Of a stretch of DNA of 26,098 nucleotides, positions 20,355-26,052 are shown in pieces (position 1 is the first letter of the stretch; every line of letters begins with the position of its first letter). Source of the DNA: an uncultured Gemmatimonadales bacterium (GTDB lineage: Bacteria; Gemmatimonadota; Gemmatimonadetes; Gemmatimonadales; GWC2-71-9); contig CAWJIM010000014.1 of NCBI GenBank assembly GCA_963842945.1, positions 1 through 26,098 on the forward strand. Reading direction: 5' to 3'. The notes beneath the pieces are model-generated. The model had not been told where the DNA came from. It saw nothing but the letters and a program-made list of their open reading frames with translations, and ran no database searches. Position numbers and translations under genes: made by a program.

Positions 20355-23064
20355 TTGCAAGATGGATTGAGTCGCCTTCAGGCTGCGCTCGCCGGCCAGT
20401 ACCGCATCGAGCGCGAGCTCGGCCGCGGTGGTATGGCAGTGGTGTATCTCGCCCACGACCTCCGCCACGACCGGCCGGTGGCACTCAAGGTGCTCCATCC
20501 GGAATTGGCCGAGACAGTCGGCACGGACCGATTCCTCCGCGAGATCAAGCTCGCCGCCCGCCTGCAGCATCCCCACATCGTTTCAGTGCATGACAGCGGG
20601 ACGACGGCTGCTGCGGGGGAGCAAGGCCGCGGGGCGGCGCATCTCTGGTTCACCATGCCCTACATCGAAGGCGAGAGCCTGCGCGACCGGTTGCGTCGCG
20701 AGCGGCAGCTCCCCATCGACGAAGCGGTTCGCATCACCCGGGAGGTCGCCCTCGCCCTCGATTTCGCCCATCGGCACGGGATCATCCACCGCGACGTGAA
20801 GCCGGAGAACATTCTGCTGGTGGACGGCCAGGCGCTGGTCGCCGATTTCGGCATCGGACGAGCGCTGGATGCTGCGGCAGGTAACGAGCAGATCACCAAC
20901 ACCGGATTCGCGGTCGGAACCCCGGCGTACATGAGCCCGGAGCAGTCGCTCGGCGAGCGCGACATCGACGGCAAGACCGATGTGTACAGCCTGGGCGTCG
21001 TGCTCTACGAGATGCTGGCCGGCGAGGCTCCGTTCAGCGGATCCAGCGCGCAGTCGATCACCGCCAAACGGCTGACCGGTGAGATCCCCAGCCTTCGCCG
21101 GCTCCGGCCCTCGGTGCCGGAACAGCTCGAGCGGGTCGTGCTCACCGCCCTGGCCACGATTCCGGCAGACCGGTTCGCCACGCCGGGCCAGCTGGCGCAG
21201 GCGTTGTCGCCCAATGTGGCCGGGATGACTTCCTCCCCCACCATCGCGACTCCTGCAGGGACGGCCGAGACTTCGGCATCTCCAACGACTCGTCGTCGCA
21301 AGCCGGTTCCCGCGTGGCTCACCTTCGTGCTCGGACTGCTGGTCACGGCGACGATGGGGATGTTCCTCTGGCAGCGGAGCCGCCATCCGGCCGAGACGCC
21401 GGGCACCAAGATGCTGGCGGTGCTGCCCTTCAAGAACATGGGCGCCGCCGGGCGACCAGTACTTCGCCGACGGGCTCACCGAGGAGATCACCAGCCGTCT
21501 GGCCGGCGTCTCCGACCTCGGCGTGGTCTCCCGCACCAGCACCGATCCATATAAAGGATCGACCAAGAGTATCCGGCAGATCGGGCAGGAGCTCGGAGTC
21601 GGCTACATCCTCGAGGGCAGCGTCCGCTGGGAGAAGTCGCCCGACGGGAGCAGCAAGGTACGGGTCACGCCCCAGCTCATCCGGGTGGCGGACGACCGGC
21701 ACCTCTGGACCGACCGCTACGATGCGCAGCTGGCGGACGTGTTCCAGGTGCAGTCCAGCATCGCGGAGCAGGTGACCAGTGCGATGAACCTGGCGCTGGA
21801 TCCCTCGGAGAAGCAGGCGATCAACGAGCGGCCGACGGCGAACACCGAGGCCTACGACTTTTACCTGCGGGGCATCGAGTACGCCAACCGCGGGCCGGGA
21901 CGAGAGGACGTTCGGAATTCGGTTCGGATGTTTCGGCGGGCGGCCGAGCTGGACTCGAATTTCGCGCAGGCCTGGGCCCGGTTGTCTCAGGGACGCTCCA
22001 GCGAGTACTGGTTTTTCTACGATCGCAGCGAAGCCGCCCTGGCGGAGGCGAAAGCGGCGGCGGAGCGCGCACTCCGGTTGCGTCCCAATCTCCCCGAGCC
22101 CCACGTGGCGATGGGTTATTACTACTACTGGGGCAAGCTGGACTACGATCGCGCGCTGCAGGAGCTGGCTCAGGCGCGGGAGAAACAGCCCAACAATGCA
22201 GAGTTGTTCATGGCATCTGCGGCGGTCCAGCGGCGCCAGGGCCGCTGGGCGGGCTCGATCGCGGACTTCGAGAAGGCGGTACAGCTGAACCCGCGATCGG
22301 CCGATGCGATCGGGAACCTGTCACAGACCTACAACCTGGTTCGCAAGTATGATCTGGCCTGTGCGACCGCCGACAAGGGGATAGGCATCGGGCCCGACCT
22401 CTCCTTCCCCCACTGGCTCAAGCTCCAATGCCTCATCGGAATGGACAGCGTGGAGCCGGCGAGGCAGGCGTTTCGCGCGGCTTTGCGGGGCGTAGACTTC
22501 GTGGAGATGAGCCGGATGGCCGCGGGAACCGGGGCGATTGCCAGCTTCGCGGTGGTGCCGAGCTTCCTGTTCACCGCCGATTCCGTCGTTCAGCCCAGGA
22601 TCGAGGCGCTCACTTCCGCCGACGTCGCCGACACTGCCGGCCTGTACATGCTCAAGTCCGACATGTATCGCATTCGGGGCCGGGCTGCGCGGGACCGGGC
22701 CTACCTCGACTCGGCACGCACCATCCTGGAATCCCAGGTGAAGGCGCATCCCGAGGAGGCGAATTTCCATGCCCGACTGGGCCTGGTGTACGCCAATCAA
22801 GGACGAAAGACCGACGCGGTGCGGGAAGGCGAGACCGCCGTGAAGCTGCTGCCGGTGAGCCGGGAGGCATACCGTGGCGCTAATATCCAGGCGGCGCTCG
22901 CCATGATCTATGCGACGGTCGGTATGCGATCTGAGGCAATCGACCAGTTAAAGTATCTGCTCTCGGTACCCTCGGAGCTCAGCGTCGGCCTGTTGCGGAA
23001 CGATCCGCGGTGGGCGGCGCTCCGAGGAGATGAGAGGTTTGAGGACTTAGTGGGTAAGCGATAA
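20355..23064 (+). CDS. Hanks-type Ser/Thr kinase with TM, TolB-like and TPR domains (frameshift near 21450)
   Basis: LGRGGMAVV, VALK, HRDVKPEN, DFG, GTPAYMSPE, DVYSLG; TM helix; LAVLPFKN..DQYFADGLTEEI..LEGSVR; TPR repeats; LRNDPRWAALRGDERF. TTG start is uncertain. Confidence 0.92.
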
Positions 23065-23092
23065 GAGGATGAGCGGTGAACAGCTCATCCTC
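23065..23092. terminator. Hairpin between the convergent kinase and ABM-like genes
   Basis: GAGGATGAGC / GCTCATCCTC 10-bp perfect stem with 8-nt loop, directly after the kinase TAA. No U-tract. Confidence 0.5.
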
Positions 23093-23121
23093 CTCGAACG
23101 GGGTGACCTGCTCATCGCGAG

Positions 23122-23442
23122 CTAACGAACTCCCATCCCCATCTCTTTCAGCAGCAACAGATCGCCCTCGATCACCTCCGGTTTGCTCAGTTGGTCCTTG
23201 AAGGGATCCTTCTGGACGAATTCAGCCGCTTTGCGGGTGGCCTCAGTCGACCCCTGGCGATCCTCGAACAGGGTAATCGAGAGAATGTCCGTCTCACCGG
23301 TCCTCATCACCCCGTAACTATGAAAGCCGCGGATATCGTGGATGGTGGGAAGAAACTTTTCCTCGATACGGCGCACGAACTGATCGATCATCTCGGTGGT
23401 GGCAGGGGTCTTGGTCGAGTAACGACGGATAGTCGCGTACAT
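23122..23442 (-). CDS. Small ABM-like (dimeric alpha-beta barrel) protein
   Basis: AGGAGG RBS; MYATIRRY..FLP..I.GF.SY..SITLFED...PEVIEGD pattern typical of ABM-like proteins. Confidence 0.78.
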   Translation of the reverse strand: MYATIRRYSTKTPATTEMIDQFVRRIEEKFLPTIHDIRGFHSYGVMRTGETDILSITLFEDRQGSTEATRKAAEFVQKDPFKDQLSKPEVIEGDLLLLKEMGMGVR

Positions 23443-23493
23443 CGGTTCCTCCTGATGGATAGAGCTGGGAGCAGAGAGCTCGGAGCCAGGTTC

Positions 23494-23533
23494 AATAGAA
23501 AACCGGCGGAGCTATAGCTTGCTCAGCCGGTTT
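23494..23533 (-). terminator. Intrinsic terminator (riboswitch expression platform)
   Basis: Minus strand AAACCGGC-U-GAGC-AAGCUAUA-GCUC-C-GCCGGUUU followed by UCUAUU. The 5' arm is the 3' end of the aptamer. Confidence 0.75.
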
Positions 23534-23597
23534 CGCGATTAGCTCCATCCCGCGCATGGGCGACCAGGAACTGCCGCGGGGTTTCATAGCTTCTGAG
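23522..23597 (-). ncRNA. c-di-GMP-II (class II cyclic di-GMP) riboswitch-like aptamer
   Basis: P1 CUCAG/CUGAG; P2 AGC/GCU with kink-turn (UAU loop, tandem GA/GA); P3 CCCGCG/CGCGGG; pseudoknot P4 GGUCGC pairing with GCGA-AA-CC (AA bulge). Lies between a promoter and a terminator. Confidence 0.8.
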
Positions 23598-23607
23598 GTG
23601 AAATCGC

Positions 23608-23635
23608 AGAATACGTCGACGACCGCGAGTGTCAA
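23608..23635 (-). promoter_or_regulatory. sigma70 promoter for the riboswitch leader
   Basis: Minus strand TTGACA (23635-23630), N16, TATTCT (23613-23608); predicted start ~23601, a few nt before P1. Confidence 0.72.
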
Positions 23636-23677
23636 GAGCGAATAGAAAAGTCTTCCGAGACCGTCCGACCGTCCGAC

Positions 23678-24151
23678 TTACATCTTATAAAACCCTCCCA
23701 GAATCGCGCCGTAAATCAGGTGCGCAACCAGGATCGAGATCGGAGTCTGATATCCATAGTTGAGCGCCAGAAACCCGGGAGGCTCGAGCTGGCGGGTCAC
23801 GGTGGGACCCTTCTGCTCGCTCGCCATGCGCGGATGCATGCTCGACAGCAGGCTTACGCCGGCAGTCAGCACGAAGCTGGCCTGGACCGCTCCGATCGCC
23901 GCGCCGATCCACCAGTTGGTCCGTCCTAACGAGTGAAAGGCTGCGACGTAAGCCAGCGAGAAGATCCAGCCGTTCAGCAGGTGGACCAGAAATCCGACCA
24001 GCTTGGCCCGCTCGCGGTTGGGAGTGAAGATCGAACCCAGGATGTAGGGAAGATTGATGCGAGTGAGGCCAAGACCCTGGCTGCCGGCCAGCACCGTCGT
24101 GAGGGCCAGCGTCGCCACCCCGCTCCAGAGCAGCCAGTCTCTCCAGTTCAT
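23678..24151 (-). CDS. Hypothetical 4-TM membrane protein coupled to the GH15 gene
   Basis: ATGA overlap with the GH15 stop; hydrophobic helices; His-containing motifs VHLLNG, MHPRM, AHLIYG. Confidence 0.8.
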   Translation of the reverse strand: MNWRDWLLWSGVATLALTTVLAGSQGLGLTRINLPYILGSIFTPNRERAKLVGFLVHLLNGWIFSLAYVAAFHSLGRTNWWIGAAIGAVQASFVLTAGVSLLSSMHPRMASEQKGPTVTRQLEPPGFLALNYGYQTPISILVAHLIYGAILGGFYKM

Positions 24152-26052
24152 ACCTTGGGCTCCTCGGCCTTGGGCTCCTCCGGTTTCTCCGGCAGCTGCC
24201 GCGGCATTGGCGTCTTGCCCTCGAGCCGCCGGGCCAGCGAGATCGCCGCATTGATCAGTCCCACGTGGGTAAACGCCTGGGGAAAGTTGCCTAGCGCGGC
24301 GCCGGTCCCGGGGTCGATCTCCTCGGCGAAGAGCCCCACGTCATTGGCATATCCGCAGAGTCTCTCGAAGAGTTGCCGAGCATCGTCCACGCTCCCGCCT
24401 CCCAGTGCGAGGTACTCCACTACCCAGAAGCTGCAGATGCCGAACGCGCCCTCCCCCGGGGAGACCGGATCTCCCTCTTTCTCCGGCTCTCTGATCCTCT
24501 GGTACCGGTAGAGCAGCCCGTCGCCAGCACCCAGCCGCTCGCGAATCCGCTGGTAGGTCTGCCGCATCCGCACGGAGGTGGCGGACTCGAAACCATACCA
24601 GGCGAGCAGCAGCAGGGTGGCGTCCACCCGGTCGCCCTCCGCTTGGGCAACGTAGCTTTCCAGCCCCGGATTCCATGCCCGGGTCTCGACCTGGCGGCGA
24701 ATGGCGTCGCGATTCTCTTCGAACTTCGCCTTGGGAGCCCAGCCCACATGATCCTTCGCGTGTAGCTGTAGCAGGCGGTCCAATGCCACCCAGCTCAGTA
24801 CCCGGGAGTGAGTATGGTTGGCCCGGCCGGTGCGCGGCTCCCAGATGCCTTCGTCGGGCTCCTCCCAGTGCCGGCAGATGTATTCGCCCCAGGCCCGCAG
24901 CACCCGCTGGGTCTCCCGGTCCAGGCTGCCTCCGGCCTGCACGAAATGGGTCACCGCATCGATCACCTCGCCGTACACATCGAGCTGACGCTGCTCCACC
25001 GCCAGGTTGCCGATTCGGACCGGTCGCGATCCGCCGTGTCCAGTCAGGCGATCCAGCGTGCGCTCATCCGGCGGCTTGTTGCCGTAGACATCATAGAGCA
25101 CTCGAAGCTCGGGCCGGGTCAGGCGAGTCGCATGCAACAGCCAGTGGACGAAGGCGTGGGCCTCGTCCATGTAACCCAGACCGGTGAGTGCGCGAACCGT
25201 GAGCGAGGCGTCGCGCAGCCAGCAGAAGCGGTAGTCCCAGTTGAGCGGACCGCCGATCCGCTCGGGCAGCGAGGTGGTGGGCGCCGCCACCACCGCACCA
25301 GAGGGAGCGAAGACCATGAGCTTGAGGGCGAGCGCGCTTCGAATTACCGCCTCGCGGCAGGGGCCGTCGTAGCGCGCGATGGAGGCCCAGCTCTGCCACC
25401 AGTCCACCGTGCGATCGAGTGCAGCCCGTGACCACTCACCCAGCGGCGGCAGCACCGCCGGACCCTCGCTCGCCAATGTGAGCGACGCCTGGGCCGACGC
25501 TCCGGAGGAGAGGCGGGCGCGTCCCCCTACCCTGCCGTCACCGCCGATCTCGGTCGCCAGGTCGGTTCGCAACGTGAGCAGGCCCACACCGGTTTCGACC
25601 CGAAGTCCCAGTTGTCCAGCCGTGCGAACTCTGGCCGCGCGGAGGGCGTACCCGGGACGCGGCTCGAACGACCACTCGAGCTCCACTTCTCCCCGCTCGC
25701 ACTCGATCAGCCGGAGGATCTCCCGCTCCGGCACCAGCAGACGTTCCTTCTCCTGCTCCGAGGACACCGGCATCAGATCGGTGAGGACCAGCGTCCCCGC
25801 TTCGGTGATGAACCGGGTCTGGAGCACGTTGGTGTTCTCGATGTAGCGCCGTTCGGTCCGGAAGGGTGCGGCTGGGGCTATGCGCCAATGCCCGGCGGTA
25901 GGATCGAGGATGCGGCCGAAGAGTGAAGGACTGTCGAACCGGGGCCAGCAGAGCCAGTCGATCGATCCGTCGCGCCCCACCAGGGCGACGGACCGGCCAC
26001 AGCCGATAGCCGCGTAGTCGCCGATGGCATTCGGGTTATGCGCCGAGGTCAC
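24148..26052 (-). CDS. Glycoside hydrolase family 15 (trehalase/glucoamylase-like)
   Basis: IGDYAAIG..DGSIDWLCWPRFDSPS; AAPTTSLPE..NWDYRFCWLRDA; QLDVYGE; PDEGIWE; EGAFGICSFW; GLFAEE; GNFPQAFTH. Confidence 0.95.
   Translation of the reverse strand: MTSAHNPNAIGDYAAIGCGRSVALVGRDGSIDWLCWPRFDSPSLFGRILDPTAGHWRIAPAAPFRTERRYIENTNVLQTRFITEAGTLVLTDLMPVSSEQEKERLLVPEREILRLIECERGEVELEWSFEPRPGYALRAARVRTAGQLGLRVETGVGLLTLRTDLATEIGGDGRVGGRARLSSGASAQASLTLASEGPAVLPPLGEWSRAALDRTVDWWQSWASIARYDGPCREAVIRSALALKLMVFAPSGAVVAAPTTSLPERIGGPLNWDYRFCWLRDASLTVRALTGLGYMDEAHAFVHWLLHATRLTRPELRVLYDVYGNKPPDERTLDRLTGHGGSRPVRIGNLAVEQRQLDVYGEVIDAVTHFVQAGGSLDRETQRVLRAWGEYICRHWEEPDEGIWEPRTGRANHTHSRVLSWVALDRLLQLHAKDHVGWAPKAKFEENRDAIRRQVETRAWNPGLESYVAQAEGDRVDATLLLLAWYGFESATSVRMRQTYQRIRERLGAGDGLLYRYQRIREPEKEGDPVSPGEGAFGICSFWVVEYLALGGGSVDDARQLFERLCGYANDVGLFAEEIDPGTGAALGNFPQAFTHVGLINAAISLARRLEGKTPMPRQLPEKPEEPKAEEPKV

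Follow-up and report, generated by a model that had tools for sequence, protein, structure and literature searches.

The canonical class II riboswitches for cyclic dimeric guanosine monophosphate (c-di-GMP-II) are mainly clostridial. Two sets of variant candidates, GAG and GCG, were reportedly described by Weinberg et al. in PNAS in 2017, with supplements that may already list sequences having A at position 69. Passages of reviews name Clostridioides and Paraclostridium as c-di-GMP-II hosts. The class (Rfam RF01786, clan CL00127, structure 3Q3Z) has a P1 stem, a P2 stem with a kink-turn, a P3 stem, a pseudoknot (P4) from the P3 loop to the junction and two bulged adenines. A leader with these elements lies on the minus strand of a 26,098-nucleotide stretch of DNA from an uncultured soil Gemmatimonadales bacterium (GenBank contig CAWJIM010000014.1, from position 1; this whole stretch is called the window here), upstream of an open reading frame (ORF) for a 106-amino-acid protein. 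It is very probably a riboswitch of the c-di-GMP-II clan with ON logic, and its aptamer reads as a canonical pocket placed on the pseudoknot scaffold of the variants (GGUCGC/GCGA). An earlier note on this DNA had proposed a complete class II switch in a probable Gemmatimonadota genome, and a Gemmatimonadales-like host agrees with both the protein homologues and the records returned by a pattern scan.

The likeness to the canonical class extends to the same bases at every c-di-GMP contact position, namely A13.G74, A14-U60, A61, A69, A70 and G73. The differences are in the 3′ strand of the pseudoknot, GCGA instead of GUGC, in A instead of G at position 62 and C instead of g at position 64, in the host, which belongs to the Gemmatimonadota, and in the target, a predicted cytosolic protein of ABM fold. 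The GAG variant (c-di-GMP-II-GAG, RF03169) and the window have in common the GGUCGC(C) loop and the GCGA strand with its U-A68 pair, and differ at positions 69 (A in the window, G in the variant), 74 (G, a) and 64 (C, G); most copies of the window-type aptamer use a terminator and precede a gene for a cytosolic protein. The GCG variant (c-di-GMP-II-GCG, RF03170) is of the same clan and scaffold and has GC at positions 69/70 where the window has AA. A further relative, c-di-GMP-II-Bh, has the same fold and pocket composition as the window and binds 2′,3′- and 3′,3′-cyclic GMP-AMP (cGAMP), but was made in the laboratory by deletion in a Bacillus halodurans aptamer (PMC13715770), and no such deletion is evident in the window.

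Family assignment and the ligand pocket

Comparison of the whole window, both strands, with 4227 Rfam families by cmscan gave a sole match at gathering level, to RF03169, at 23516-23603 on the minus strand (42.2 bits, cut-off 40, E 3.1e-05). The match spans the full length of the 86-position covariance model (E 1.2e-6 per genome), and its place is the only one above that cut-off in the 4.3-Mb genome. At the same site the canonical model RF01786 gives 37.8 bits, below its cut-off of 53.5 (E 2.5e-6 per genome), while RF03170 gave no match at the leader in the genome search, the window having A69 and A70 and not the G69-C70-G73 signature. Formal membership is split: the canonical threshold is failed, and the GAG threshold is passed without the GAG-defining G69. 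The expectation that covariance models for c-di-GMP-II would recognize the leader is thus borne out for the variant model and not for RF01786, and the proposed aptamer with P1, kink-turned P2, P3 and a pseudoknot with bulged adenines is upheld by the full-length model alignment and by pairing in relatives.

A permissive cmscan on three loci printed the consensus lines of the three models, from which the 14 unpaired positions following the P2 3′ strand can be compared:

Canonical RF01786: AGUgGUGCAACCGg
GAG variant RF03169: AgUGGCGAGACCGa
GCG variant RF03170: AgUGGCGAGCCCGa
Window: AAUCGCGAAACCGG

In the class II structure 3Q3Z the pocket has A61 as its ceiling and an A.G pair atop P1 as its floor, and the first P2 pair, A14-U60, stacks on the ligand backbone; one ligand guanine, G-alpha, is bound by A69, A70 intercalates between the two ligand bases, and G-beta is bound by G73 (PMC13715770). 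Counted from U60, on the presumption that crystal sequence and model consensus align without insertions or deletions, positions 69, 70 and 73 read AAG in the canonical class, GAG in RF03169, GCG in RF03170 and AAG in the window. By deduction from these consensus lines, the variant names GAG and GCG would denote nucleotides 69, 70 and 73. The corresponding signature is GCGAGACCG in the RF03169 consensus and GCGAAACCG in the window, and A69 is present in the window and in 23/23 aligned relatives.

What the window has in common with the GAG and GCG variants is the pseudoknot, with a GGUCGC loop facing GCGA and, in place of the canonical C68 in the 3′ strand, an A68 paired with U. The consensus lines agree with the previously noted UCGC/GCGA in place of the canonical GUGC strand. 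They do not agree with the suggestion that the GG before P1 might signal altered specificity: G73 and G74 are the canonical consensus, and an ‘a’ at position 74 is a feature of the variants. A canonical pocket on the scaffold of the variants would explain why the score falls between the canonical and GAG models, with RF03169 scoring best because of the pseudoknot sequence common to the window and the variants.

Conservation was assessed in an alignment of 23 sequences that leaves out the loci of two unpublished genomes (G003 and G047), a GAG-type locus (L035) and a doubtful one (L037). The aptamer structure including the pseudoknot pairs in 94.1% of cells, compared with 28-38% in slid controls, and nine pairs change on both sides, with 0/500 shuffles reaching any of five measures. 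The covariation signal sits in P3, in 7/9 pairs. P4 is paired in 99.3% of cells, with no variation; in P2 the G-C pair is kept in 22/23 sequences and the C-G pair in all 23. Within the junction (23540-23527) 13 of the 14 nucleotides are invariant in 23/23, and C64 is nearly so. The conserved structure anticipated upstream of homologues of the 106-amino-acid protein is therefore present in the aligned leaders.

Layout of the leader and the proposed switch

A 235-nucleotide minus-strand gap, bounded by the 106-amino-acid ORF and a gene for a DUF6789-like membrane protein (23678-24151), houses the entire leader. The promoter, aptamer string, overlapping terminator, AGGAGG, ATG and ORF that had been read from the letters are all in place, and the aptamer string at 23597-23522 is CUCAG AA GC UAU GA ... 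GGUCGC ... GGA GCU AAUCGCGAAACCGG CUGAG. The parts, all on the minus strand, are as follows.

23630-23635, minus: −35 box TTGACA, read from the sequence and found by the promoter scan; TTGAC is at equal distance in the leaders of relatives
23608-23613, minus: −10 box TATTCT after a 16-nucleotide spacer, read and found by the promoter scan; mostly TATAGT in relatives
23516-23603, minus: aptamer according to the RF03169 match, with the P1-to-P1 core at 23522-23597
23593-23597, minus: P1 5′ strand CUCAG, pairing with 23522-23526; 98.3% of cells paired in 23 sequences, nearly invariant
23584-23592 (part), minus: A13 (23592) and P2 5′ strand A14-G-C (23591-23589), from the model alignment
23584-23592 (part), minus: kink-turn bulge UAU (23588-23586) and GA (23585-23584), from the model alignment
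23574-23582, minus: P3 5′ strand; changes on both sides in 7/9 pairs, 94.2% of cells paired
23560-23565, minus: pseudoknot P4 5′ strand GGUCGC within the P3 loop, complementary to GCGA (23536-23533) and CC (23530-23529)
23547-23555, minus: P3 3′ strand, from the 23-sequence covariation analysis
23541-23546, minus: kink-turn 3′ side GGA (23546-23544) and P2 3′ strand GCU (23543-23541, with U60 at 23541), from the model alignment and relatives
23527-23540, minus: junction and P4 3′ strand AAUCGCGAAACCGG, numbered from PMC13715770 against the model consensus lines, with A61 at 23540, A68 at 23533, A69 at 23532, A70 at 23531, then C71-C72, G73 at 23528 and G74 at 23527
23522-23526, minus: P1 3′ strand CUGAG, from the model alignment and relatives
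23500-23533, minus: terminator hairpin, 5′ arm AAACCGGCUGAGC (23533-23521), loop (23520-23513) and 3′ arm GCUCCGCCGGUUU (23512-23500)
23448-23453, minus: Shine-Dalgarno sequence AGGAGG, 5 nucleotides 5′ of the ATG; GGAGG is at the same place in relatives
23122-23442, minus: 106-amino-acid ORF with ATG at 23442, predicted ABM or dimeric ferredoxin-like fold

The promoter scan found one site at the leader, compared with 0.3 expected from shuffles. The minimum-free-energy structure computed for the leader is the terminator hairpin (−40.5 kcal/mol, z score −2.38), which is followed by UCUAUU to 23494, the U-run being UUUU then CUAUU. The hairpin is paired in 96% of cells in the 23 sequences with no covariation, as expected when the aptamer constrains the 5′ arm. 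That arm, 23533-23521, consists of A68-G74 and the P1 3′ strand, that is, the 3′ strands of P4 and P1, so that formation of the terminator and of the ligand-bound aptamer would be mutually exclusive. The overlap on which the earlier note had based its ON-switch logic can be read directly.

Transcription would start a few bases past the TATTCT box. With ligand absent the RNA would adopt the terminator hairpin 23533-23500 and most transcripts would stop in the U-run; with ligand present P1 and P4 would form, holding AAACCGGCUGAG (23533-23522), which is also the 5′ arm of the terminator, and with the terminator blocked the polymerase would continue into the gene. The leader would then be a transcriptional ON switch for a monocistronic gene for the 106-amino-acid protein of ABM fold, the direction of regulation in vivo being one that we infer. 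The excerpts of PMC10043782 that bear on this present control by a terminator as an ordinary riboswitch design. Parts of the locus are contained in three metatranscriptome runs of one study, none of them with half of the sampled words. A 243-nucleotide contig from a metatranscriptome library (X4) spans 23328-23570 with two differences, reaching from the loop of the aptamer across the terminator to within the ORF, and is at best weakly compatible with read-through transcripts, as contigs show no RNA ends, strand or level and the libraries may contain DNA; stretches of the locus that lack cover are uninformative.

Downstream of the ORF, between its stop and the end of a convergent TPR gene, is an inverted repeat, GAGGAGGATGAGC ... 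GCTCATCCTC (window about 23064-23095), which may be a shared terminator, although a consensus scan does not call it as one. The TPR ORF (513 amino acids, 21523-23064, plus strand) is overlapped by 32 nucleotides, in another frame, by a 399-amino-acid ORF with a protein-kinase-like start (20355-21554, plus strand), and a frameshift or an assembly error near 21520-21555 seems to have divided a single kinase-TPR gene into these two. Upstream of the leader and on its strand, 24148-26052 encodes a 634-amino-acid glycoside hydrolase family 15 protein with a trehalase-like N-terminal domain that is unrelated to the riboswitch.

The downstream protein and the distribution of the aptamer

The 106-amino-acid protein is predicted to have an ABM-like fold. 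An AlphaFold model from a 32-sequence alignment (mean confidence, pLDDT, 89.6) has the order beta-alpha-beta-beta-alpha-beta, and Foldseek matched it to 116 Protein Data Bank (PDB) chains at E ≤ 0.001, the top matches all being ABM or dimeric ferredoxin-like (probability 1.00, template-modelling score 0.5-0.72, identity 9-20%), which places the modelled fold with the dimeric alpha+beta barrels. Matched structures of ABM type are 2od4, 2pd1, 1iuj (TT1380), 1r6y (YgiN), 2gff (LsrG), 3kg0 (SnoaB) and IsdG/IsdI. With the ABM family (PF03992) the protein has in common a ferredoxin-like fold of about 100 amino acids, and differs in the low identity and in a Pfam score below threshold (ABM 19.7 bits, cut-off 23.1, E 0.001; MoaE, also below threshold, 20.8 bits). 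The ABM-like product foreseen from the translation thus holds at the level of predicted structure and falls short at that of the Pfam score. No NCBIfam family matched the protein, and a profile search of PDB sequences gave no match. Its homologues number 311: those with NCBI names are from a ‘Gemmatimonadales bacterium’, JGI labels them HmoA, MoaE or hypothetical, and in the protein atlas the clusters all bear the name ‘hypothetical protein’, ABM being present on 11-14% of the members in some of them.

The genome of the window also has a paralogue with 37% identity (contig C4, 11588-11887, minus strand), and no riboswitch match was found on the contig that carries it. Paralogues are 29-41% identical; in four other genomes the leaders that were read directly follow a gene ending like that for a short-chain dehydrogenase, and none of the four has the aptamer.

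The distribution of the aptamer was followed with RF03169 at E ≤ 0.01 in the genome of the window, 60 genomes of the same genus and 40 genomes of two other families. Matches are present in 25 of the 101 genomes, the window’s own and 24/60 of the genus, with 0/40 in the other families. The genus-sample and phylum-wide tallies and the orthologue search include one or both of the unpublished genomes, on which the readings of L016, L019 and L038 rest; the alignments (A1, A2), structure model and covariation counts are free of them. One of the 28 match places, L037 (26.8 bits), was dropped as it looks like coding sequence. All of the remaining places read AAU(C/G)GCGAAACCGG (26/28) save L035, which is of GAG type. 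A phylum-wide draw gave matches in 11/151 genomes including the window’s own; 7 of the 11 sampled genomes of the genus have one, as do two other genera of the family, in which genes for a lipoprotein, a membrane protein and a 134-amino-acid protein of no known kind follow the same aptamer. A sub-threshold place from this draw, L197 (31.2 bits), was likewise set aside as looking like coding sequence.

The link to the gene is close. Downstream of 24 of the 27 loci read is the orthologue of the 106-amino-acid protein (MYATIRRY...), with a TTGAC/TATAGT promoter and GGAGG, and nearly all of these show the hairpin and U-run, L036 being without the terminator and L017 having an interrupted U-run. The other three are L029, which stops at a contig end 34 nucleotides past the aptamer, L038, before a SnoaL-like gene, and L035, before a gene for a small secreted protein. 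Orthologue-level protein matches (E ≤ 1e-22) occur in 26 genomes. In one of them (G048, L165) the orthologue still has the promoter and the P1 5′ strand (CUCAGAAG) upstream, the remainder of the aptamer having been deleted along with the terminator; in another (G033, L180) unrelated sequence stands in place of the aptamer’s 3′ half. These natural losses fit a dispensable cis-regulator. Contig ends truncate the orthologue leaders in G009 and in one of the copies in G051. Two copies of aptamer and gene, with identical aptamers, are present in G049 (L023 and L039), and an apparent frameshift sets the L023 protein apart from the family beyond about residue 65.

The GAG-type aptamer, GGCGAGACCG (L035, 208-299, plus strand, in genome G042; 35.1 bits), is the only real one of the genus found. 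Its locus has no terminator, GGAGG comes directly after the P1 3′ strand, and the next gene encodes 111 amino acids that begin like a signal peptide; over its first 53 bases the locus matches the 3′ end of transfer-messenger RNA.

A pattern scan with one genome per species gave at least 122 loci, of which a strict rule (exact P1 complement and the kink-turn 3′ motif) retained at least 42 aptamers. Among the matches listed, 41 of these come from records labelled Gemmatimonadales, Gemmatimonadaceae, Gemmatimonadetes or Gemmatimonadota and one from ‘Candidatus Eisenbacteria’; the set overlaps the genus-sample genomes and is not independent of them. Seven loci rejected by the rule, among the matches listed, were nevertheless confirmed by cmscan (L049, L117, L136, L052, L101, L150 and L153), while L103 gave no cmscan match at E ≤ 0.01. 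Three loci in Chloroflexota records (L057, L090 and L147) are chance pattern matches in cobalamin riboswitches (RF00174, 45-50 bits), and the other 69 rejected loci, judged by eye, are mostly in coding sequence and were taken as chance matches. Among the matches listed, the genes downstream of the 42 strict-rule aptamers are 26 of ABM-like type and 15 others, with one locus too short. Pfam comparison of 11 of the others gave SnoaL (L077, a public locus and so a second instance of the SnoaL link besides L038), an af470-like monooxygenase (L091), Hsp20 (L107), PD40 beta-propeller lipoproteins (L058 and L083) and a Big_2 lipoprotein (L059), with five lacking a family.

Ligand, competing readings and significance

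Canonical pocket nucleotides point to c-di-GMP as the probable ligand. The genome has 13 GGDEF matches, eight of them full-length, and two EAL matches, and c-di-GMP is the only cyclic dinucleotide for which synthases were found in it, Hypr-type GGDEF signatures lying outside the scope of that search.

Several observations weigh against a c-di-GMP-responsive ON switch, in addition to the shortfall against the canonical model. P1 and P4 are invariant or nearly so in the clade and lend no covariation support, the first P2 pair (A14-U60, the ligand-stacking pair of the crystal) is standard in just 8/23 sequences, and the window’s own P3 has two mismatches. Folded alone, the aptamer is no stabler than shuffles (z score +0.34) and its predicted fold departs from the model; a fold that depends on a pseudoknot and a ligand would be expected to show such a mismatch, which is counted neither for nor against. 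The simple terminator consensus scan of 23000-24300 called no terminator, the U-run is short, and the terminator is absent, with an intact aptamer, in L036 (genome G022, one of the 23 aligned) and in the public Gemmatimonadales loci L044 and L157. SMODS, DAC and PilZ domains were not found in the genome, which at 86.9% completeness of the assembly is not proof of their absence, and the regulated gene falls outside the classic targets of c-di-GMP. Finally, pocket bases alone do not fix the ligand, since c-di-GMP-II-Bh binds cGAMP with the same pocket composition. In the three terminator-less copies a ribosome-binding site is within about 20-25 nucleotides after P1, and these copies may regulate translation, or nothing.

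That the window RNA is a true member of the orphan GAG class, sensing the ligand of that class and not c-di-GMP, is rather unlikely. Its best-scoring model, and the only one passed, is indeed RF03169, its scaffold is that of the GAG and GCG consensus, and a real GAG-type aptamer exists in one genome of the same genus, but the class-naming G69 is A in the window and in every aligned relative, position 74 is the canonical G, and AAG-type relatives in other phyla can score best against the canonical model. Among aptamers with the same junction in other phyla, RF01786 is best for L101 (51 bits) and L150 (37.6 bits), and RF03169 for L052 (Actinomycetota) and L153 (Brocadiaceae), at 42-43 bits. A literature search on the ligand of the GAG and GCG variants found nothing.

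It is improbable, too, that another cyclic dinucleotide is sensed, such as 3′,3′-cGAMP from a Hypr-type GGDEF enzyme. The engineered c-di-GMP-II-Bh, with the same pocket composition, binds 3′,3′-cGAMP with a dissociation constant of 11 nM, and its selectivity shifts with changes at the first P2 pair (PMC13715770), the very pair that is unconserved in the clade, 15/23 sequences lacking a standard one there; the lack of any SMODS-type cyclase or DAC domain among the genes found in the 86.9%-complete genome speaks the other way, as does the plenty of GGDEF and EAL genes. There is only a slight chance that the leader is a conserved structure with no ligand response, a constitutive attenuator or a protein-binding site resembling a riboswitch. 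The full-length model match, the retention of all ligand-contact positions in a junction conserved save for the nearly invariant C64, free covariation in P3, and the occurrence of the same aptamer in other genera before unrelated genes (lipoproteins, Hsp20, SnoaL and af470-like) all argue against it, even if the invariance of P1 and P4 could reflect recent common descent within one genus and the aptamer alone gives no thermodynamic signal.

With c-di-GMP sensing as the preferred reading, there is a trap for annotation: score thresholds file the window RNA, and about 50 like it among the matches listed, under an orphan variant despite ordinary c-di-GMP contact bases. The leader would also extend class II c-di-GMP-type riboswitches to the Gemmatimonadota, for which a limited literature search found no paper on c-di-GMP riboswitches, and would tie the messenger to an uncharacterised protein family of ABM fold, giving a first handle on the role of that family. 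The A69 and G69 forms on one scaffold are a natural pair for testing the ligand of the GAG class.

A bolder proposal, which we consider doubtful, is that aptamers with an AAG pocket and a UCGC pseudoknot are an uncatalogued branch linking canonical c-di-GMP-II to the GAG and GCG variants and could, as no PilZ domain was found in the genome, serve as a main read-out of the GGDEF/EAL network or of cGAMP made by a Hypr-type GGDEF. Were the proposal true, the presence of A69-type and G69-type aptamers in one genus would be a one-nucleotide natural handle on the ligand of the orphan variants, and the aptamers would switch on small barrel proteins with no known cofactor (ABM-like, SnoaL-like and af470-like), together with surface lipoproteins, so that a second messenger would govern an unknown small-molecule chemistry in Gemmatimonadota.

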